A stretch of 36,933 nucleotides of DNA from a virus (Duplodnaviria > Caudoviricetes): IMG/VR virus record IMGVR_UViG_3300030376_002653, positions 1-36,933 of that record. The stretch is one strand, 5' to 3'. Of this stretch, positions 21,407 to 35,955 are shown in pieces (the stretch's first letter is position 1; the number at the start of each line of letters is the position of its first letter). The position numbers were made by a program, and so were the translations under genes. The notes under the pieces are model-generated. The model saw nothing but the letters and a program-made list of their open reading frames with translations, made no database searches and was not told where the DNA came from.

Positions 21407-21655
21407 ATGGTAGCTAAGAAATATCAATCTAAAACAGGTGGATTAAACGAAGCAGGTAGAAAGTTCTTTAAAAGAACTACAGGCTCTAATTTAAAAAGAC
21501 CTGTTACAGGCAAAGTCAAACCAGGTTCAAAGGCAGCTAAAAGACGAGCAAGTTTTTGTGCAAGAATGTCAGGAGTCAAAGGTCCAATGAAAGACAGCAA
21601 AGGAAGACCAACACGTAAAGCGTTGGCATTAAAAAAATGGAAATGTCGCACATAA
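21407..21655 (+). CDS. Basic hypothetical protein (RRASFCARM family)
   Basis: GGLNEAGRK...KRRASFCARMSG...ALKKWKC. Confidence 0.8.
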   Translation: MVAKKYQSKTGGLNEAGRKFFKRTTGSNLKRPVTGKVKPGSKAAKRRASFCARMSGVKGPMKDSKGRPTRKALALKKWKCRT

Positions 21656-24255: not shown

Positions 24256-24720
24256 ATGCCAAAAAGAGCAGATACAGAAAAAGAAACTAAGTTTATAAAT
24301 TATTTTTGTGAAGGAGAAACACAAGGTAATGCAACACAATCGGCAATAAAGGCTGGTTACAATAAAGATACAAAACCTGCACAAATGGGAGCTTATTTAA
24401 GAAAAAAATTATCTACAGATATAAGAAAGAAAAACGAAGAGATGATTGCTAATACTAGCAGTCGTGCAATATCTGTACTTAATAATTTATTAGAATCAGA
24501 ACAGGATAGTGTTAAGCTCAATACAGCTAAACTGTTGCTTGAGCTTGGAAACTTCCACAGTCAAAACATAAATATAAATGTTGACGATGTAAAAGAAAAG
24601 TCAGACGAAGAACTAATGTTAGAGTTGAAAACATTATTGATATCTAATCCTGATTTAAGAGAAGTTATAAAAGAACAGGCAGAAGAAGTTATTGACGAAT
24701 CAGAACAAACAAAACATTAA
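24256..24720 (+). CDS. terS: Terminase small subunit
   Basis: GNATQSAIKAGY HTH motif; VKLNTAKLLLELG. Confidence 0.8.
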   Translation: MPKRADTEKETKFINYFCEGETQGNATQSAIKAGYNKDTKPAQMGAYLRKKLSTDIRKKNEEMIANTSSRAISVLNNLLESEQDSVKLNTAKLLLELGNFHSQNININVDDVKEKSDEELMLELKTLLISNPDLREVIKEQAEEVIDESEQTKH

Positions 24721-25515: not shown

Positions 25516-25558
25516 TGTTTTAAATAATTGAATGTTAACAATTAGAAAGTAGATTCAA

Positions 25559-30940: not shown

Positions 30941-31074
30941 ATTTATACACCAACCAATATACAATCCTGTTAGAACTTTCATGCCCTCTGATTCATACAA
31001 TCTTGTTTGAACTTTACTAAAACAAATACCTATTTTGTTAACATTTTATTATTGAATGATGTAGATTTTATGTG

Positions 31075-31358
31075 AAAAAAAAGTGCCTTAGACTTTTTGT
31101 TTGTAGAAATTGAGTAAAACTCTATCCACCTATAACCTGTCTAAGACACTTTAGCCGACTTCTACTTGTGGAGAGCAATAGATATTCGCACAGTAGCCCA
31201 GTCTAGTCTCTTCACCCTTTGATTATCCGTCCACATTATTATGTGCCGTTTTCTTCTACACCAAGTATATGTTTCGAACCATATAAATGACACCAAAGAG
31301 CGTATCACTTTTAAGCTTTCGAGGTACAACCTTGCGAGTTATACCGAGTTTCGAGCAT
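31075..31358 (-). ncRNA. Candidate standalone structured RNA (RNA-2)
   Basis: Minus-strand G.U-compatible stems, C-GCAA-G tetraloop, terminal 14-bp stem plus U-tract, upstream TTGCAT promoter-like element. Confidence 0.55.
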
Positions 31359-31451
31359 GATTATATTATTACACAGAAATAATAATAATGCAAACATTTA
31401 TTTTATTTAATTCATTTCAATTTAGATTTGTTAACATACAAAAATTAAGAC

Positions 31452-31480
31452 AAAAAAAAAGAGCCGTATTTCTACGGCTC
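31452..31480 (-). terminator. Rho-independent terminator
   Basis: GAGCCGTA-GAAA-TACGGCTC followed by T9 on the minus strand. Confidence 0.9.
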
Positions 31481-31486
31481 AATGTT

Positions 31487-31801
31487 TTATATCCATTCTT
31501 GCTTTACTGCATATCCATCATCAAACAAGAATCTTGAAAGCGTATAAATCAAGTGGAAACCCATATCCATTCCACAACCACCGACTTTTACGCCTCCTCC
31601 AGTCTTGTTTTTTCCTTCTTTCCAATCTAGAGCAACAGAAACAAACCTTGTTAAATTAATAGGCTTGTTGTCATCAATTGCTATAACGCTGATGTGTCGC
31701 ATCATTCCAGACTGAGAAACATGATTCAAGGTTGTAAACAATGAATCTCCTTCTTTTACGTAATTTTTCAAGACTTCTATAGCTTTATCTTTACTAATCA
31801 T
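31487..31801 (-). CDS. Conserved phage hypothetical protein (HVSQSGMMRHI...GCGMDMGFHL)
   Basis: AGGAG RBS; recognisable conserved motifs; function unknown. Confidence 0.8.
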   Translation of the reverse strand: MISKDKAIEVLKNYVKEGDSLFTTLNHVSQSGMMRHISVIAIDDNKPINLTRFVSVALDWKEGKNKTGGGVKVGGCGMDMGFHLIYTLSRFLFDDGYAVKQEWI

Positions 31802-31816
31802 TTTTTAAACTCCTAT

Positions 31817-31993
31817 TTAATAAATTAAAATATCTAATGCTATTAACATGAATGGAAAAAAACACACACATGCGACAGCAAAATACCACTTATAGCTTGT
31901 TACATCGTTCTTAAAAAGCTCATAAAGAGCGAAATAACAAGCACTAGCACAAATTAAGAAAAGAAATAAATACAGATTTATAATTAAATCCAT
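31817..31993 (-). CDS. Small two-TM membrane protein, 58 aa
   Basis: Hand-translated MDLIINLYLFLFLICASACYFALYELFKNDVTSYKWYFAVACVCFFPFMLIALDILIY; GAGG RBS. Confidence 0.6.
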   Translation of the reverse strand: MDLIINLYLFLFLICASACYFALYELFKNDVTSYKWYFAVACVCFFPFMLIALDILIY

Positions 31994-31995
31994 GC

Positions 31996-32160
31996 CTAAA
32001 ACCTCAATAATTCATAGTTGACAAATGCAAGATTGACAGAATCAATTCTGTATTTATCAACATTAAAATCATAAGTGTGTGAAGGATTATTTCTTAATTC
32101 ACTCTCTAGATAGCTTTTAATTTTTAATAAAAGTTTTTTATCAAATTTCAAAATTTCCAT
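31996..32160 (-). CDS. Hypothetical protein, 54 aa
   Basis: AGGA RBS; MEILKFDKKLLLKIKSYLESELRNNP... Confidence 0.55.
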   Translation of the reverse strand: MEILKFDKKLLLKIKSYLESELRNNPSHTYDFNVDKYRIDSVNLAFVNYELLRF

Positions 32161-32270
32161 AATAAAATTTCCTATGTAGTTAATTAATTAAGCTGAATTC
32201 ATTTACTATCGGTTGCTCTCCTTGAGTCTAAATCCATGCCTTATTTGTATAAGTGCATTTGCTTATAATA

Positions 32271-32299
32271 ATTATAATATTGATGTTATTTAAAAACAA
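32271..32299 (-). promoter_or_regulatory. Sigma70-type leftward promoter
   Basis: TTGTTT-17-TATAAT on the minus strand. Confidence 0.6.
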
Positions 32300-32391
32300 C
32301 ACATAAAACGCTATAAAATAAAATAAATTTATAAATGTTAACAATCATTATTTTAAAACATACATACAAATATGATTTAATAATGAATAGA

Positions 32392-32427
32392 TTTAAATTA
32401 TTTAATGTTAACATTTGAGATTTTAAA
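32392..32427. promoter_or_regulatory. Fully symmetric copy of the repeated motif TTTAAA-N8-TGTTAACA-N8-TTTAAA
   Basis: Best example of 14 copies (listed in findings). Confidence 0.75.
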
Positions 32428-32785
32428 ACATTGTTAAAGTCAATATTAAATAGTGCAAAATATTAAATTTTTATATTGACATTTTGAATTATTTAATTTT
32501 GTAAAATTCTGTAAGTCTTTGATTTTACGTTGCTCTTTAAAGGGTATTATTTGGCGTTTTTTAAACATTTAGATATGATACTATCACAATTTAAAAAACA
32601 TCAAAATAAGGTATTTAAGCTCAAAATATAACGTGTCAAGTGATTTGTGTAATAATTTCAATTTTGATACTTATATATACATATATATAGTATGATTTAA
32701 ATATTGATATGTTAACAAAAAAGCTTTTTAAATAACTTAAAATTTGATACAATTAAGCATGAAACATAAAAAAGGAGATATTAAA

Positions 32786-33958
32786 ATGGAAAAAAATATA
32801 TTAATAGAAAGAAAGAAAAAGCACGTTTCACGTGAAACATTTGCAAAATATAACAGCTTTAACAATGTAATGGGCAATAGCTGGAAATCATATAACGTTA
32901 TTGATTCATTAATTATTGAAGATAAAAACACGAAAAAAACTTTTAATAAATTCTATGCAACGTGCATTAGTAAAGCATTAAAAGACAATTTAACATCTAT
33001 TAGAGAGAGCAAGGAGTCTAATAAAAATAAAGTAGAATCAGATATCAAAAGATTATTTGATAATGCGATACTACAAGACTTCTTTAAATCTGTAGAAGTT
33101 AACAATGATGAAGAAGTTATACATTTTTTAAATAATGTTCCACGTGAAAAATGCTACAGAGTAGAACCTCATTATTTATTAGATAAGCATTTATCAAAAC
33201 AATGGGACTTATATAAAAACATGAATTATTTTGATAAGGATATTATTAAAAAACAAAAAATAGCTATTAAGAAATATAATGACGCTCCAGTACGTGAGAA
33301 AGTACTCAGAGATATAGTTACAAAATTAGTGCCTATATTCTCAGAGCGTGGTTATCATTTAGACTTATCAAAAGTAGATGTATCTTTTAACATTGAGATG
33401 TCAGGGAAAGTTTTAGGTCGTTGCTATCACGAATCATCAGATAAAGGAAATGATACTATTGCAAAAAATAAGCTTAGACAAATTGCAATACGTGGCAAAG
33501 TCTCCAAAACTATAGACGATGAAGGAAAAGAAACAATAACTTATAATCCGAATAATATAAGAGATGTGTTGCAAGTATTGGTTCATGAGCTAGTACACGC
33601 TTATCACGGAACAGAAGAAGGACACGGAACAAAGTTTAAAAACACGTGTAAAGATGTAGGATTGACTGGAAGTGGCAAAGACAATGCAAAATTTACAGCA
33701 ACAATTCCAGCTCCTGAATTTGATTCAATGTACAAGGACATATTAAAAATCAAATTGCCTAGTACAGAATTTCATTATGATAGTAAGGGACAATCTAAAA
33801 ATCAAAAATATAGATGCCCAATATGTAAAATGAGATGTACTGTAACTAATAGAAGTGCGAAACATTCAGAAACAAAAATGTTTTGTAATCATGAAGGAAC
33901 AGAATACGAAGGACACGACATAACACAAATGGAGCAATACGAAACAAAGAAAAAATAA
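32786..33958 (+). CDS. SprT-like zinc metalloprotease domain protein with C-terminal Zn ribbon, 390 aa
   Basis: AAGGAG RBS then ATG 32786; LGRCY, VLVHELVHAYHG..GHGTKFK..C..VGL, CPIC...CNH. Confidence 0.8.
   Translation: MEKNILIERKKKHVSRETFAKYNSFNNVMGNSWKSYNVIDSLIIEDKNTKKTFNKFYATCISKALKDNLTSIRESKESNKNKVESDIKRLFDNAILQDFFKSVEVNNDEEVIHFLNNVPREKCYRVEPHYLLDKHLSKQWDLYKNMNYFDKDIIKKQKIAIKKYNDAPVREKVLRDIVTKLVPIFSERGYHLDLSKVDVSFNIEMSGKVLGRCYHESSDKGNDTIAKNKLRQIAIRGKVSKTIDDEGKETITYNPNNIRDVLQVLVHELVHAYHGTEEGHGTKFKNTCKDVGLTGSGKDNAKFTATIPAPEFDSMYKDILKIKLPSTEFHYDSKGQSKNQKYRCPICKMRCTVTNRSAKHSETKMFCNHEGTEYEGHDITQMEQYETKKK
32824..32839. promoter_or_regulatory. parS: parS-like site 1 (CGTTTCACGTGAAACA)
   Basis: 15/16 match to the consensus TGTTTCACGTGAAACA; encodes the HVSRET peptide. 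Confidence 0.75.
33136..33151. promoter_or_regulatory. parS: parS-like site 2 (TGTTCCACGTGAAAAA)
   Basis: 15/16 match to the common variant TGTTCCACGTGAAACA; encodes NVPREK. Confidence 0.65.
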
Positions 33959-33980
33959 ATAAACTTACACACATAAAGAG

Positions 33981-34010
33981 AAGAGTCATATAAACGTGGC
34001 TCTTTTTTTT
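33981..34010 (+). terminator. Rho-independent terminator after the SprT-like gene
   Basis: AAGAGTCAT-ATAAAC-GTGGCTCTT followed by a T-run. Confidence 0.8.
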
Positions 34011-34435
34011 ATTTCAATTCTTTGATGTTAACATTAAATAATATAAAACTTTTAACAAGGTTTTGATTATAGACCTATAATAAAAAAACAAAGTCGGCAA
34101 AGGGTACTAATGCCTTATCCTTACTAGCCTATATATACTGAAAGCCTTTTATTATGGTTATATTTATTGTTAACATTTATTTGTTTAAATCATTTAATAA
34201 AGGTGGTACGCCACTCACTCACACGTAATAAATAAATTTAATGCCCATGAATAATTATTAAATAAAATAAATAAATAAAAAATAATTATTGATTCCAAAA
34301 TAATTCTCAACCGATTGCAAAATATTCTCAGACACCCACAACCCCCCATACACAAAAACAAATACAGGGTCGTCTCATTCACGCTATGGAGGGATAAATG
34401 AAGTCCATTAGCAACGTCTAATATACAAATAAATA

Positions 34436-34464
34436 TTGCAATAATTTAAATTTTTAATTATAGT
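34436..34464 (+). promoter_or_regulatory. Putative late-operon promoter
   Basis: TTGCAA-17-TATAGT, 72 nt upstream of terL. Confidence 0.7.
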
Positions 34465-34536
34465 TAGGAGTGGATAATTACGCATTATTCATTTGACCCC
34501 AAAGTAGGGTTATCTCGGTAGCCCTACATTAAAACT

Positions 34537-35955
34537 ATGAAAAATGACAAGATAAGTGAAATACTAAACACACTTAAAACAAGGCGTGTTGAAAATAAAC
34601 TCAATTACTATAAGCCCTATAAATTTCAAATGAATTTTCATGAGACAGGGAGTCAGGCTAATCAAAGACTACTAATGGCTGCTAATAGGGTTGGCAAGTC
34701 CTATGTGGGGGCGATGGAGATGGCTGTCCACTTAACAGGTAACTATCCTAAGTGGTGGAAAGGAAAACGCTATAATCAGCCTATTAGGGCGTGGGTGTGT
34801 GGTGCGAGTAATGAAACCACAAGAGATATCTGTCAAAAAGAATTATTTGGGCAACCAGACAACCCTAGAGATAAGGGAAAGGGAAGTATTCCTAAACATC
34901 TCATTGGTGAAACGACAAGAAAACCTGGAGTGCCAAACGCACATTCCTCCGTTCTTGTAAAACACAAAACTGGTGGGTGGTCTCGTGTTGCCTTTAAAGC
35001 CTATGAAATGGGTGCTGAAAAATTTATGGGGGAGTCGATTGACCTAGTATGGCTCGATGAAGAACCTCCACAAGACATTTATTCACAATGTATTACAAGG
35101 ACATTGGACAGACAAGGACAAGTATATCTAACCTTTACGCCTGAATCAGGCATGACAGAGGTAGTACAGAATTTTACAACGAGTTTGAAGCCTAAACAGG
35201 CATTGATTACAGCAGGTTGGGAAGATGCAGAACATCTAACTGACGATATGAAAGAACAGATTTTACAGGCATTACCTCCTCATGAGCGAGAAATGAGGTC
35301 AAAAGGTATTCCGATGATAGGGTCAGGGCTAGTATTTCCTATAGACGAGGACAAGATAGCATGTGAGCCTTTTCAAGTTCCTGAACATTTTGCTAGGATT
35401 GCAGGGCTTGATTTTGGTTATGACCACCCTACAGCCGTTGTATGGATTGCATGGGACAGAGATGAGGACGTTGTATACGTTTATGATTGTTATAGTCAGT
35501 CCAAACAAACAGCAGATTATCACGCATCACACATTAATGAGCGTGAAGGAAGTCATTACATACCTATAGCTTTTCCTCATGATGGTTTCCAACACGACAA
35601 AGGGTCAGGGATTACCCTTGCAGAACAGTACAGAAACGCTCACGTTAACATGTTGCCGTTTCATTTTGAAAATCCACCTGCTTTAGGCGAAAAAAAAGGT
35701 GGTAACAGCGTAGAAGCAGGACTAATGGAAATGTTGACACGTATGGAACAAGGAAAATTTAAAGTTTTTAATACTTTGTATGACTGGTTTCAAGAATATA
35801 GGCTTTATCATAGAAAAGATGGTAAATTAGTTAAAATTAAAGATGATTTAATGTCAGCAACAAGATATGCAGCGTTAAGTTTACGTTATGCAGACACAGA
35901 AACGTCAAAATGGAACAAAAAGGGTCGATTAGGTCCTGATGTAGCAATAGTTTAG
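34537..35955 (+). CDS. terL: Terminase large subunit (P22 gp2-like)
   Basis: Walker A AANRVGKS; Walker B VWLDEEPP; motif III TFTPE; nuclease GLDFGYDHPTA...DDLMSATRYA. Confidence 0.95.
   Translation: MKNDKISEILNTLKTRRVENKLNYYKPYKFQMNFHETGSQANQRLLMAANRVGKSYVGAMEMAVHLTGNYPKWWKGKRYNQPIRAWVCGASNETTRDICQKELFGQPDNPRDKGKGSIPKHLIGETTRKPGVPNAHSSVLVKHKTGGWSRVAFKAYEMGAEKFMGESIDLVWLDEEPPQDIYSQCITRTLDRQGQVYLTFTPESGMTEVVQNFTTSLKPKQALITAGWEDAEHLTDDMKEQILQALPPHEREMRSKGIPMIGSGLVFPIDEDKIACEPFQVPEHFARIAGLDFGYDHPTAVVWIAWDRDEDVVYVYDCYSQSKQTADYHASHINEREGSHYIPIAFPHDGFQHDKGSGITLAEQYRNAHVNMLPFHFENPPALGEKKGGNSVEAGLMEMLTRMEQGKFKVFNTLYDWFQEYRLYHRKDGKLVKIKDDLMSATRYAALSLRYADTETSKWNKKGRLGPDVAIV

Follow-up and report, generated by a model that had tools for sequence, protein, structure and literature searches.

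A chromosomal-type parS site was found in the early region of an uncultured marine podovirus, and the pattern of its conservation suggests that it is very probably read by the ParB protein of the host. The window, which is the whole stretch of 36,933 nucleotides that was analysed, carries this site (site 1) and a second, degenerate one (site 2) inside a gene for a SprT-like zinc metalloprotease (Table 1). The initial annotation had proposed that the phage DNA recruits host ParB, and recruitment was supported as likely, because the motif is conserved at the DNA level, occurs now in coding and now in non-coding DNA of the early region, and is found with no ParA, ParB or integrase of the phage. 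Since no phage reader was found, the host ParB is the likely one. If this binding is true, an uncultured marine podovirus family uses the centromere machinery of its hosts.

Table 1. Coordinates of the features discussed, as positions in the window
Feature	Position	Strand	Remarks
parS site 1 (primary), CGTTTCACGTGAAACA	32824-32839	.	Perfect 14-bp palindromic core; codons 13-18 of the SprT-like gene
parS-like site 2 (secondary, degenerate), TGTTCCACGTGAAAAA	33136-33151	.	Codons 118-122 of the SprT-like gene
SprT-like zinc metalloprotease gene, 390 aa	32786..33958	+	Pfam PF10263 (residues 195-293, above cut-off); phrog_6361
AT-rich divergent control region	31994..32785	.	Upstream of the SprT-like gene; in most relatives parS sits in the equivalent non-coding DNA
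C-run, then ~35 bases on CACGCTATGG(A/T)GGG element	34342..34393	+	Recurs upstream of terL in most of the relatives shown; ~1.5 kb away from site 1
Terminase large subunit gene (terL)	34537..35955	+	PHROGs and Pfam matches; marker for collecting the family

Two parS-like 16-mers in a complete phage genome

Sites 1 and 2 lie 312 bp apart and each differs by one mismatch from the consensus TGTTNCACGTGAAACA; across the whole window, no other position came within two mismatches of it. A third-order Markov model of the window gave 0.0037 such sites expected and a probability of ~7e-6 for two or more, and a chance origin of the two 16-mers is excluded. The initial description of two 16-mers in excess of chance expectation, both placed in the SprT-like coding sequence, was thus borne out, together with the peptides that it gave for them (V14-S-R-E-T18 at site 1 and V118-P-R-E-K122 at site 2). 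Contigs from three other public runs (X1, X5 and X6), of which X5 and X6 are possibly one data set and one of the three is possibly the source of the window, covered both sites with no differing letter.

The genome is 36.9 kb in length and circularly complete, with an end overlap of 121 bases that is 99% identical and a CheckV value of 100, and Pfam matches identified a podovirus with an SU10-type portal, capsid and adaptor. As the initial annotation had noted for an apparently complete genome, ParA, ParB and integrase gave no match when the 57 ORFs were scanned against PHROGs and Pfam. A six-frame search for PF02195 (ParB_N), PF13614 (AAA_31) and PF00589 (integrase) also found none in five parS-bearing genomes of the family, the window included; four of these five are complete, the controls were positive in 11-14 of 14 known genomes, and very divergent homologues could escape such a search. 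DNA polymerase and primase families were likewise without a match in the 57 ORFs (PHROGs, Pfam), so replication of the phage would lean on the host. The gene for the terminase small subunit (24256-24720) was located at the far end of the late operon, 10 kb from terL, and is split off likewise in relatives. Very small, highly basic ORFs, possibly encoding DNA-condensing virion proteins, were seen at 1607-2616, in the interval between portal and scaffold, and at 21407-21655, after the ejection proteins.

The sequence is present mostly in runs from marine metagenomes. Its closest cultured relatives are distant, the best terL match being 60% to pelagiphage Baldr and the best capsid match 51% to HTVC106P, and neither of these two nearest cultured pelagiphages has a close parS match. 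When the fragment with both sites was compared as DNA with cultured phages, only short chance matches were obtained. The search for a host among GTDB genomes gave a single distant match (49%), no host names were attached to the cluster members, and the literature searched gave nothing linking SAR11 to parS. The initial annotation had suggested matching the exact parS variant to candidate hosts in order to predict the host. The variant does not predict it, since the core GTTYCAYRTGRAAC was present in 374 of the 401 genomes of the bacterial class of an Emcibacteraceae genome (a tally that includes the unpublished, positive genomes G070 and G256, on which none of the claims rests), mostly two or three times and with few control matches, and is thus too widespread to type one.

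Host-type parS sites are also common in viral contigs at large, mostly without a ParB match. On the basis of 1 of 64 parts, IMG/VR is estimated to hold ~11,000 stretches with TGTTYCACGTGAAAC; the reversed control gave 34, so that the excess is ~300-fold. From the first 80 loci, 50 records were chosen, many of them fragments and some perhaps host DNA; among the 48 that could be searched, a ParB_N match was obtained in four and none in 44, and in two of the 11 near-complete ones. In the IMG/VR loci L093-L221 the parS sites often occurred in arrays (L103, L143, L148).

Conservation of site 1 as DNA

The 14-bp core of site 1, GTTTCACGTGAAAC, is exact within the 16-bp palindrome class TGTTYCACGTGRAACA, which places it among chromosomal-type parS sites. 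Orthologues of the SprT-like gene in L014 and L338, with 55% and 46% protein identity respectively, keep this core with one A>G change each, at a position that is degenerate in the bacterial consensus; the change replaces Glu by Gly. Of the 47 four-fold degenerate codons at residues identical in the window and L014, only 19 were the same, and a third Val-Arg-Glu stretch of the same gene is encoded by different codons. Twelve of the 13 full-length orthologue proteins read VSRET, VSRGT or VPRGT, which are three of the four peptides that the parS consensus can encode, and the remaining one reads VSRGA; they come from 14 cluster proteins, of which one is a 40-residue fragment without a match, one belongs to the window itself and many are nearly identical to each other. 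The full palindrome is present at site 1, with T at 32824, in a strain contig that shows 35 differences over 512 bases. The stretch encoded by site 1 belongs to the basic N-terminal tail of the protein model, where confidence is low (pLDDT <50, residues 1-20).

Across lineages the 16-mer is constant while its flanks differ, and the variation that it does show in the family (Y5, R12 and a rare CATG core) consists of variants present in bacterial genomes. Conservation as DNA, independent of coding, was thus evident both in the site-1 orthologues and in the intergenic location of the site in most relatives. The initial annotation had asked for conservation at the synonymous level or turnover of location inside the region, and site 1 provides both, being kept as DNA and passing between coding and non-coding DNA with the early region retained. 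The outcomes that it had named as refuting, kept residues with randomised codons and relatives devoid of any parS, were not encountered at site 1 and in the family, respectively. Judged by this pattern of variation, site 1 is a parS selected as DNA and not as peptide, and would offer a tidy case in which the amino-acid changes of an overlapping gene are set by a motif in the DNA.

Site 2 is a weaker site

The second site had been given equal standing with the first, which the comparison did not sustain. Site 2 has one intact half-site, the other half being without a conserved G:C pair owing to C15>A, at a position that is C in 13/13 primary sites of the family, and it thus lacks the intact core of a chromosomal-type parS. 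By our own alignment this position appears to correspond to guanine 1, one of the two bases that separate parS from the Noc site in the available text of PMC7383237. The exact variant was recorded in 2 of 151 bacterial genomes (the unpublished G070 among the 151) against three control matches, and is therefore not enriched. In L014 the 12-bp core of site 2 is kept with the same A>G change, in L338 the site is lost, and in two strain contigs it drifts further from the consensus. Site 2 also overlaps a Pro-Arg pair that is found in L010, whose gene holds no parS, so its conservation may be partly at the protein level. It is probably an auxiliary or decaying site.

The SprT-like protease

The encoded protein consists of a helical N-terminal extension of no known family, an HELVH..H motif (residues 267-271 and 280) and a C-terminal CxxC..CxH zinc-binding motif. 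H267, E268, H271 and H280 were invariant in 10/10 sequences, as were the columns of the cysteine motif. The best fold matches of the model (mean pLDDT 69) were SPRTN (6mdx; Z 9.2, rmsd 3.1, 100 residues aligned) and Wss1 (5xbn; Z 8.3), with a Foldseek match at E 6e-4. The HExxH motif, the third His and the minigluzincin-type fold are those of SprT/SPRTN/Wss1 metalloproteases, and the model thus predicts a SPRTN/Wss1-like protease by fold, a shared fold showing no function. A comparison of the N-terminal extension with the Atlas gave no usable match.

Distribution of parS across the terL family

Relatives were gathered in two overlapping sets, a viral set of 81 loci (the best 80 of 271 by terL and one by SprT) and a metagenome set of the best 80 of 287, in which the window's own virus is counted. 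A site with at most one mismatch was present upstream of terL in 6/81 viral loci (296 kb) and 10/80 metagenome loci; downstream of terL there was none in either set (438 kb and 424 kb). Clustering of terL at 95% gave 30 lineages, of which nine were dropped for short upstream DNA with no site, leaving 21 that could be scored. parS was found in 11 of these, comprising all six lineages with a SprT-like gene and five of the 15 without one (Fisher p 0.012, uncorrected for kinship), and in all six the site is either 5' of the SprT gene or inside its start. Among the 80 loci found through SprT, parS was present in 11 of the 12 that belong to the terL family, the twelfth being cut short, against 0/68 from other phages. 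The contrast between lineages with and without parS is weakened by one "negative" lineage, G008, which has a perfect site just beyond the stored locus.

In the relatives the sites precede terL by 0.2-4.7 kb; most of them fall in non-coding DNA, and their flanks are unrelated. Ten of the 21 scorable lineages had no site in the stored loci, and since many of these show the whole early region, parS is dispensable for the family, an accessory element, which thereby offers natural plus and minus lineages. No alternative palindrome was shared across the 22 parS-negative loci examined. A match in G002 was regarded as a chance one, its central CACGTG being broken. The terL tree, a quick and unfinished version with few supported forks from which we claim no order of gains and losses, places most SprT lineages in a single group. 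In L089 (1501), L270 (2314) and L292 (7723) a single block is present, made up of a G-rich run, parS, 16 bases, a TTGACA promoter and the same downstream gene; its occurrence in three different terL lineages suggests that it moves as a cassette.

Control region and neighbouring elements

The control region contains a sigma-70-like match, TTGATA-16-TATAGT, at 32664-32691, where promoter matches as a whole were not above shuffle level, and three copies of the motif TTTAAA-N7-ATGTTAACA. Copies of approximately this repeat occur in the window at 25534, 28133, 29019, 30359, 30929, 31037, 31430, 32337, 32407, 32711, 34027 and 34169, and 11/17 of the GTTAAC hexamers scored were intergenic in a genome that is 9% non-coding. 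Upstream of terL the repeat reaches 10-13 copies in L010, L014, L336 and L339, and 0-1 copies in most of the others; L045, in which SprT is without the N-terminal extension, is among the latter. The repeat likely serves as an operator for a regulator of phage or host origin, and one candidate for its reader is the N-terminal extension of the protease. The C-run and the element that follows it are a candidate for a pac site or genome end.

L055, whose genome contains parS as well, has a cluster of 12 DnaA-box matches of the TTATCCACA type, which we take to be the DnaA-box motif, within ~270 bases (561-295 bases upstream of terL); a cluster of three was seen in L048. The L055 cluster is a candidate for an oriC-like origin or a DnaA decoy on a phage with no integrase match. 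The TTAA-N7-TTAA motif, presumably of the CtrA type, was not enriched in the control region. A scan of 31001-34600 for the Spo0A box TGNCGAA gave none, against 0.8 expected, and no cluster, an absence that is weak evidence because the expectation is only 0.8.

A proposed role for the site

We favour, with a probability of about one half, a reading in which early ParB loading tethers the incoming genome to the nucleoid and titration follows later as the copies multiply. Site 1 would load the host ParB clamp on the phage genome soon after entry, and the loaded genome would be tethered to the nucleoid via host ParA and SMC, the host presumably having a chromosomal ParABS. The selected benefit would be the positioning of a single incoming genome, so that host enzymes can replicate it or so that it is retained when infection of a starved cell stalls. 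If the element upstream of terL marks the packaging start, packaging would begin just upstream of terL and the parS region would be packaged last and enter first. With multiplication, ParB would be drawn from the few sites of the chromosome, and as the sampled bacterial genomes mostly hold two or three of these, a single site on each replicating phage genome would exceed them in number; titration would thus be a later effect, as in SGI1. Against this reading, one or two sites are few next to the five of phi29, the step of the first-entering end draws on a candidate element and on analogy, and the early-region location could reflect where new sequence is tolerated. The absence of the site from 10 scorable lineages and of a close match from Baldr and HTVC106P also counts against it.

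Host ParB at parS could instead tune the neighbouring early promoter or the SprT-like gene, repressing it as ParB spreads or acting as a roadblock, and so allow the phage to sense the ParB/CTP status and delay or start lysis, which we regard as possible though unlikely. A -35-like hexamer begins 32-44 bases after the start of parS in six loci (L089, L270 and L292, which share the block described above, and separately L305, L055 and L010), in L001 and L161 parS is flanked by the -10 and the ribosome-binding site, and the position of the site relative to the SprT gene in all six SprT lineages points the same way, as does the silencing of genes near parS by plasmid ParBs in the available text of PMC7333895. 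However, that text also has B. subtilis ParB, at its native level, leaving adjacent genes unsilenced, and the proximity tests were not significant (6/15 against 3.5 expected and 8/14 against 5.6, with a null that ignores intergenic location). Site 1 of the window moreover lies inside a coding sequence, ~130 bases beyond the promoter-like match. A decoy whose position is irrelevant, in which replicated phage DNA would titrate ParB and block segregation and division, giving a larger cell or no dilution, is rather unlikely. It would fit the few parS sites of hosts, mostly two or three in the class sampled, the fitness cost that an additional parS at a distance from the origin has in Caulobacter and Pseudomonas (PMC7333895, in part), the destabilisation of the helper plasmid by amplified SGI1 parS mimics (PMC10954446, in part) and the additional DnaA-box array of L055. 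Yet a decoy could sit anywhere, and no site was seen in all the DNA downstream of terL in either set, while most genomes have a single site and no array.

The link with the SprT-like gene, in the lineages as in the loci found through SprT, would accord with parS-loaded ParB acting as bait beside a possibly DNA-activated protease that cuts ParB or DNA-bound host proteins. It would also accord with ParB spreading as a shield of the entering DNA against nucleases, as F-plasmid ParB spreading hinders the access of restriction enzymes in the available text of PMC7333895. The predicted fold is closest to DNA-protein-crosslink proteases. Kinship may nevertheless explain this link, because the terL tree groups most SprT lineages together; parS occurs without SprT in at least five lineages, and the shared fold shows no function. 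We hold bait or shield to be improbable, and a slightly bolder version quite improbable, in which parS and protease would form one early module: the bait would load ParB on the first-entering DNA, the protease would destroy or strip the clamps and so disable host segregation, and relatives would add cell-cycle decoys such as the DnaA-box array. A reading in which the palindrome is bound by some other protein of host or phage, or arises as a by-product of constraint on the encoded protein, is highly improbable. The Pro-Arg pair shared by site 2 and the parS-free gene of L010 argues for it, against which stand the intergenic location of site 1 in most relatives and a variation that follows that of bacterial genomes.

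Comparison with known systems

The phage-plasmids P1 and N15 encode ParA/ParB and plasmid-type centromeres. The present family resembles them in combining non-integrating phage DNA with a centromere, and differs in that no ParA/ParB was found in the five genomes searched. With the bacterial chromosomal ParABS-SMC centromere, at which ParB, once loaded at parS, spreads and cooperates with ParA and SMC (PMC7333895, in its available text), the family shares the 16-bp consensus and the tolerated variants (PMC7333895 and PMC7383237, both as available in part), whereas the phage is without parA, parB and an oriC context, and site 2 without the base aligned to guanine 1.

A closer likeness is offered by SGI1, whose two parS mimics, in the available text of PMC10954446, hijack the ParABS of an IncC plasmid, stabilising SGI1 and destabilising or expelling the helper plasmid once amplified. 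As in the window, there are two parS copies on an element without its own system, and the two-stage logic is that proposed here for the phage. In contrast, SGI1 is an integrative mobilisable element with a plasmid ParABS as its target and a helper protein, Sci, while the window is a phage with the chromosomal consensus.

The closest phage precedent is phi29, with five parS sites and Spo0J implicated in moving the genome into the prespore (PMC2731898, in its available text). Like phi29 and Nf, as far as that text describes them, the window is a lytic-type phage with chromosomal-type parS and no phage partition proteins found, the host ParB being the presumed reader. The five sites of phi29 are accompanied by Spo0A boxes at early promoters in a sporulating host, whereas in the window one site is strong and the other weak, the control region is free of 0A boxes and the source is marine, the nearest cultured relatives infecting Pelagibacter, Vibrio and Pseudomonas. 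In the present family the sites are moreover restricted to the early region and linked with a SprT-like gene. No literature on host-type parS in marine or other lytic phages of non-sporulating hosts was found in a search that covered mainly openly available papers. The principle, whose novelty the initial annotation had left to a literature check, is preceded by both phi29 (PMC2731898) and SGI1 (PMC10954446) on the available text of each, so that hijacking of a host centromere system is already known. Its purpose here is probably other than spore entry. If ParB binding is true, another benefit must exist, because spore entrapment, the only documented phage purpose found, is probably inapplicable; the candidates that would set this family apart from phi29 are a block of division, the positioning of the DNA as it comes in, and infection that stalls when cells are starved.
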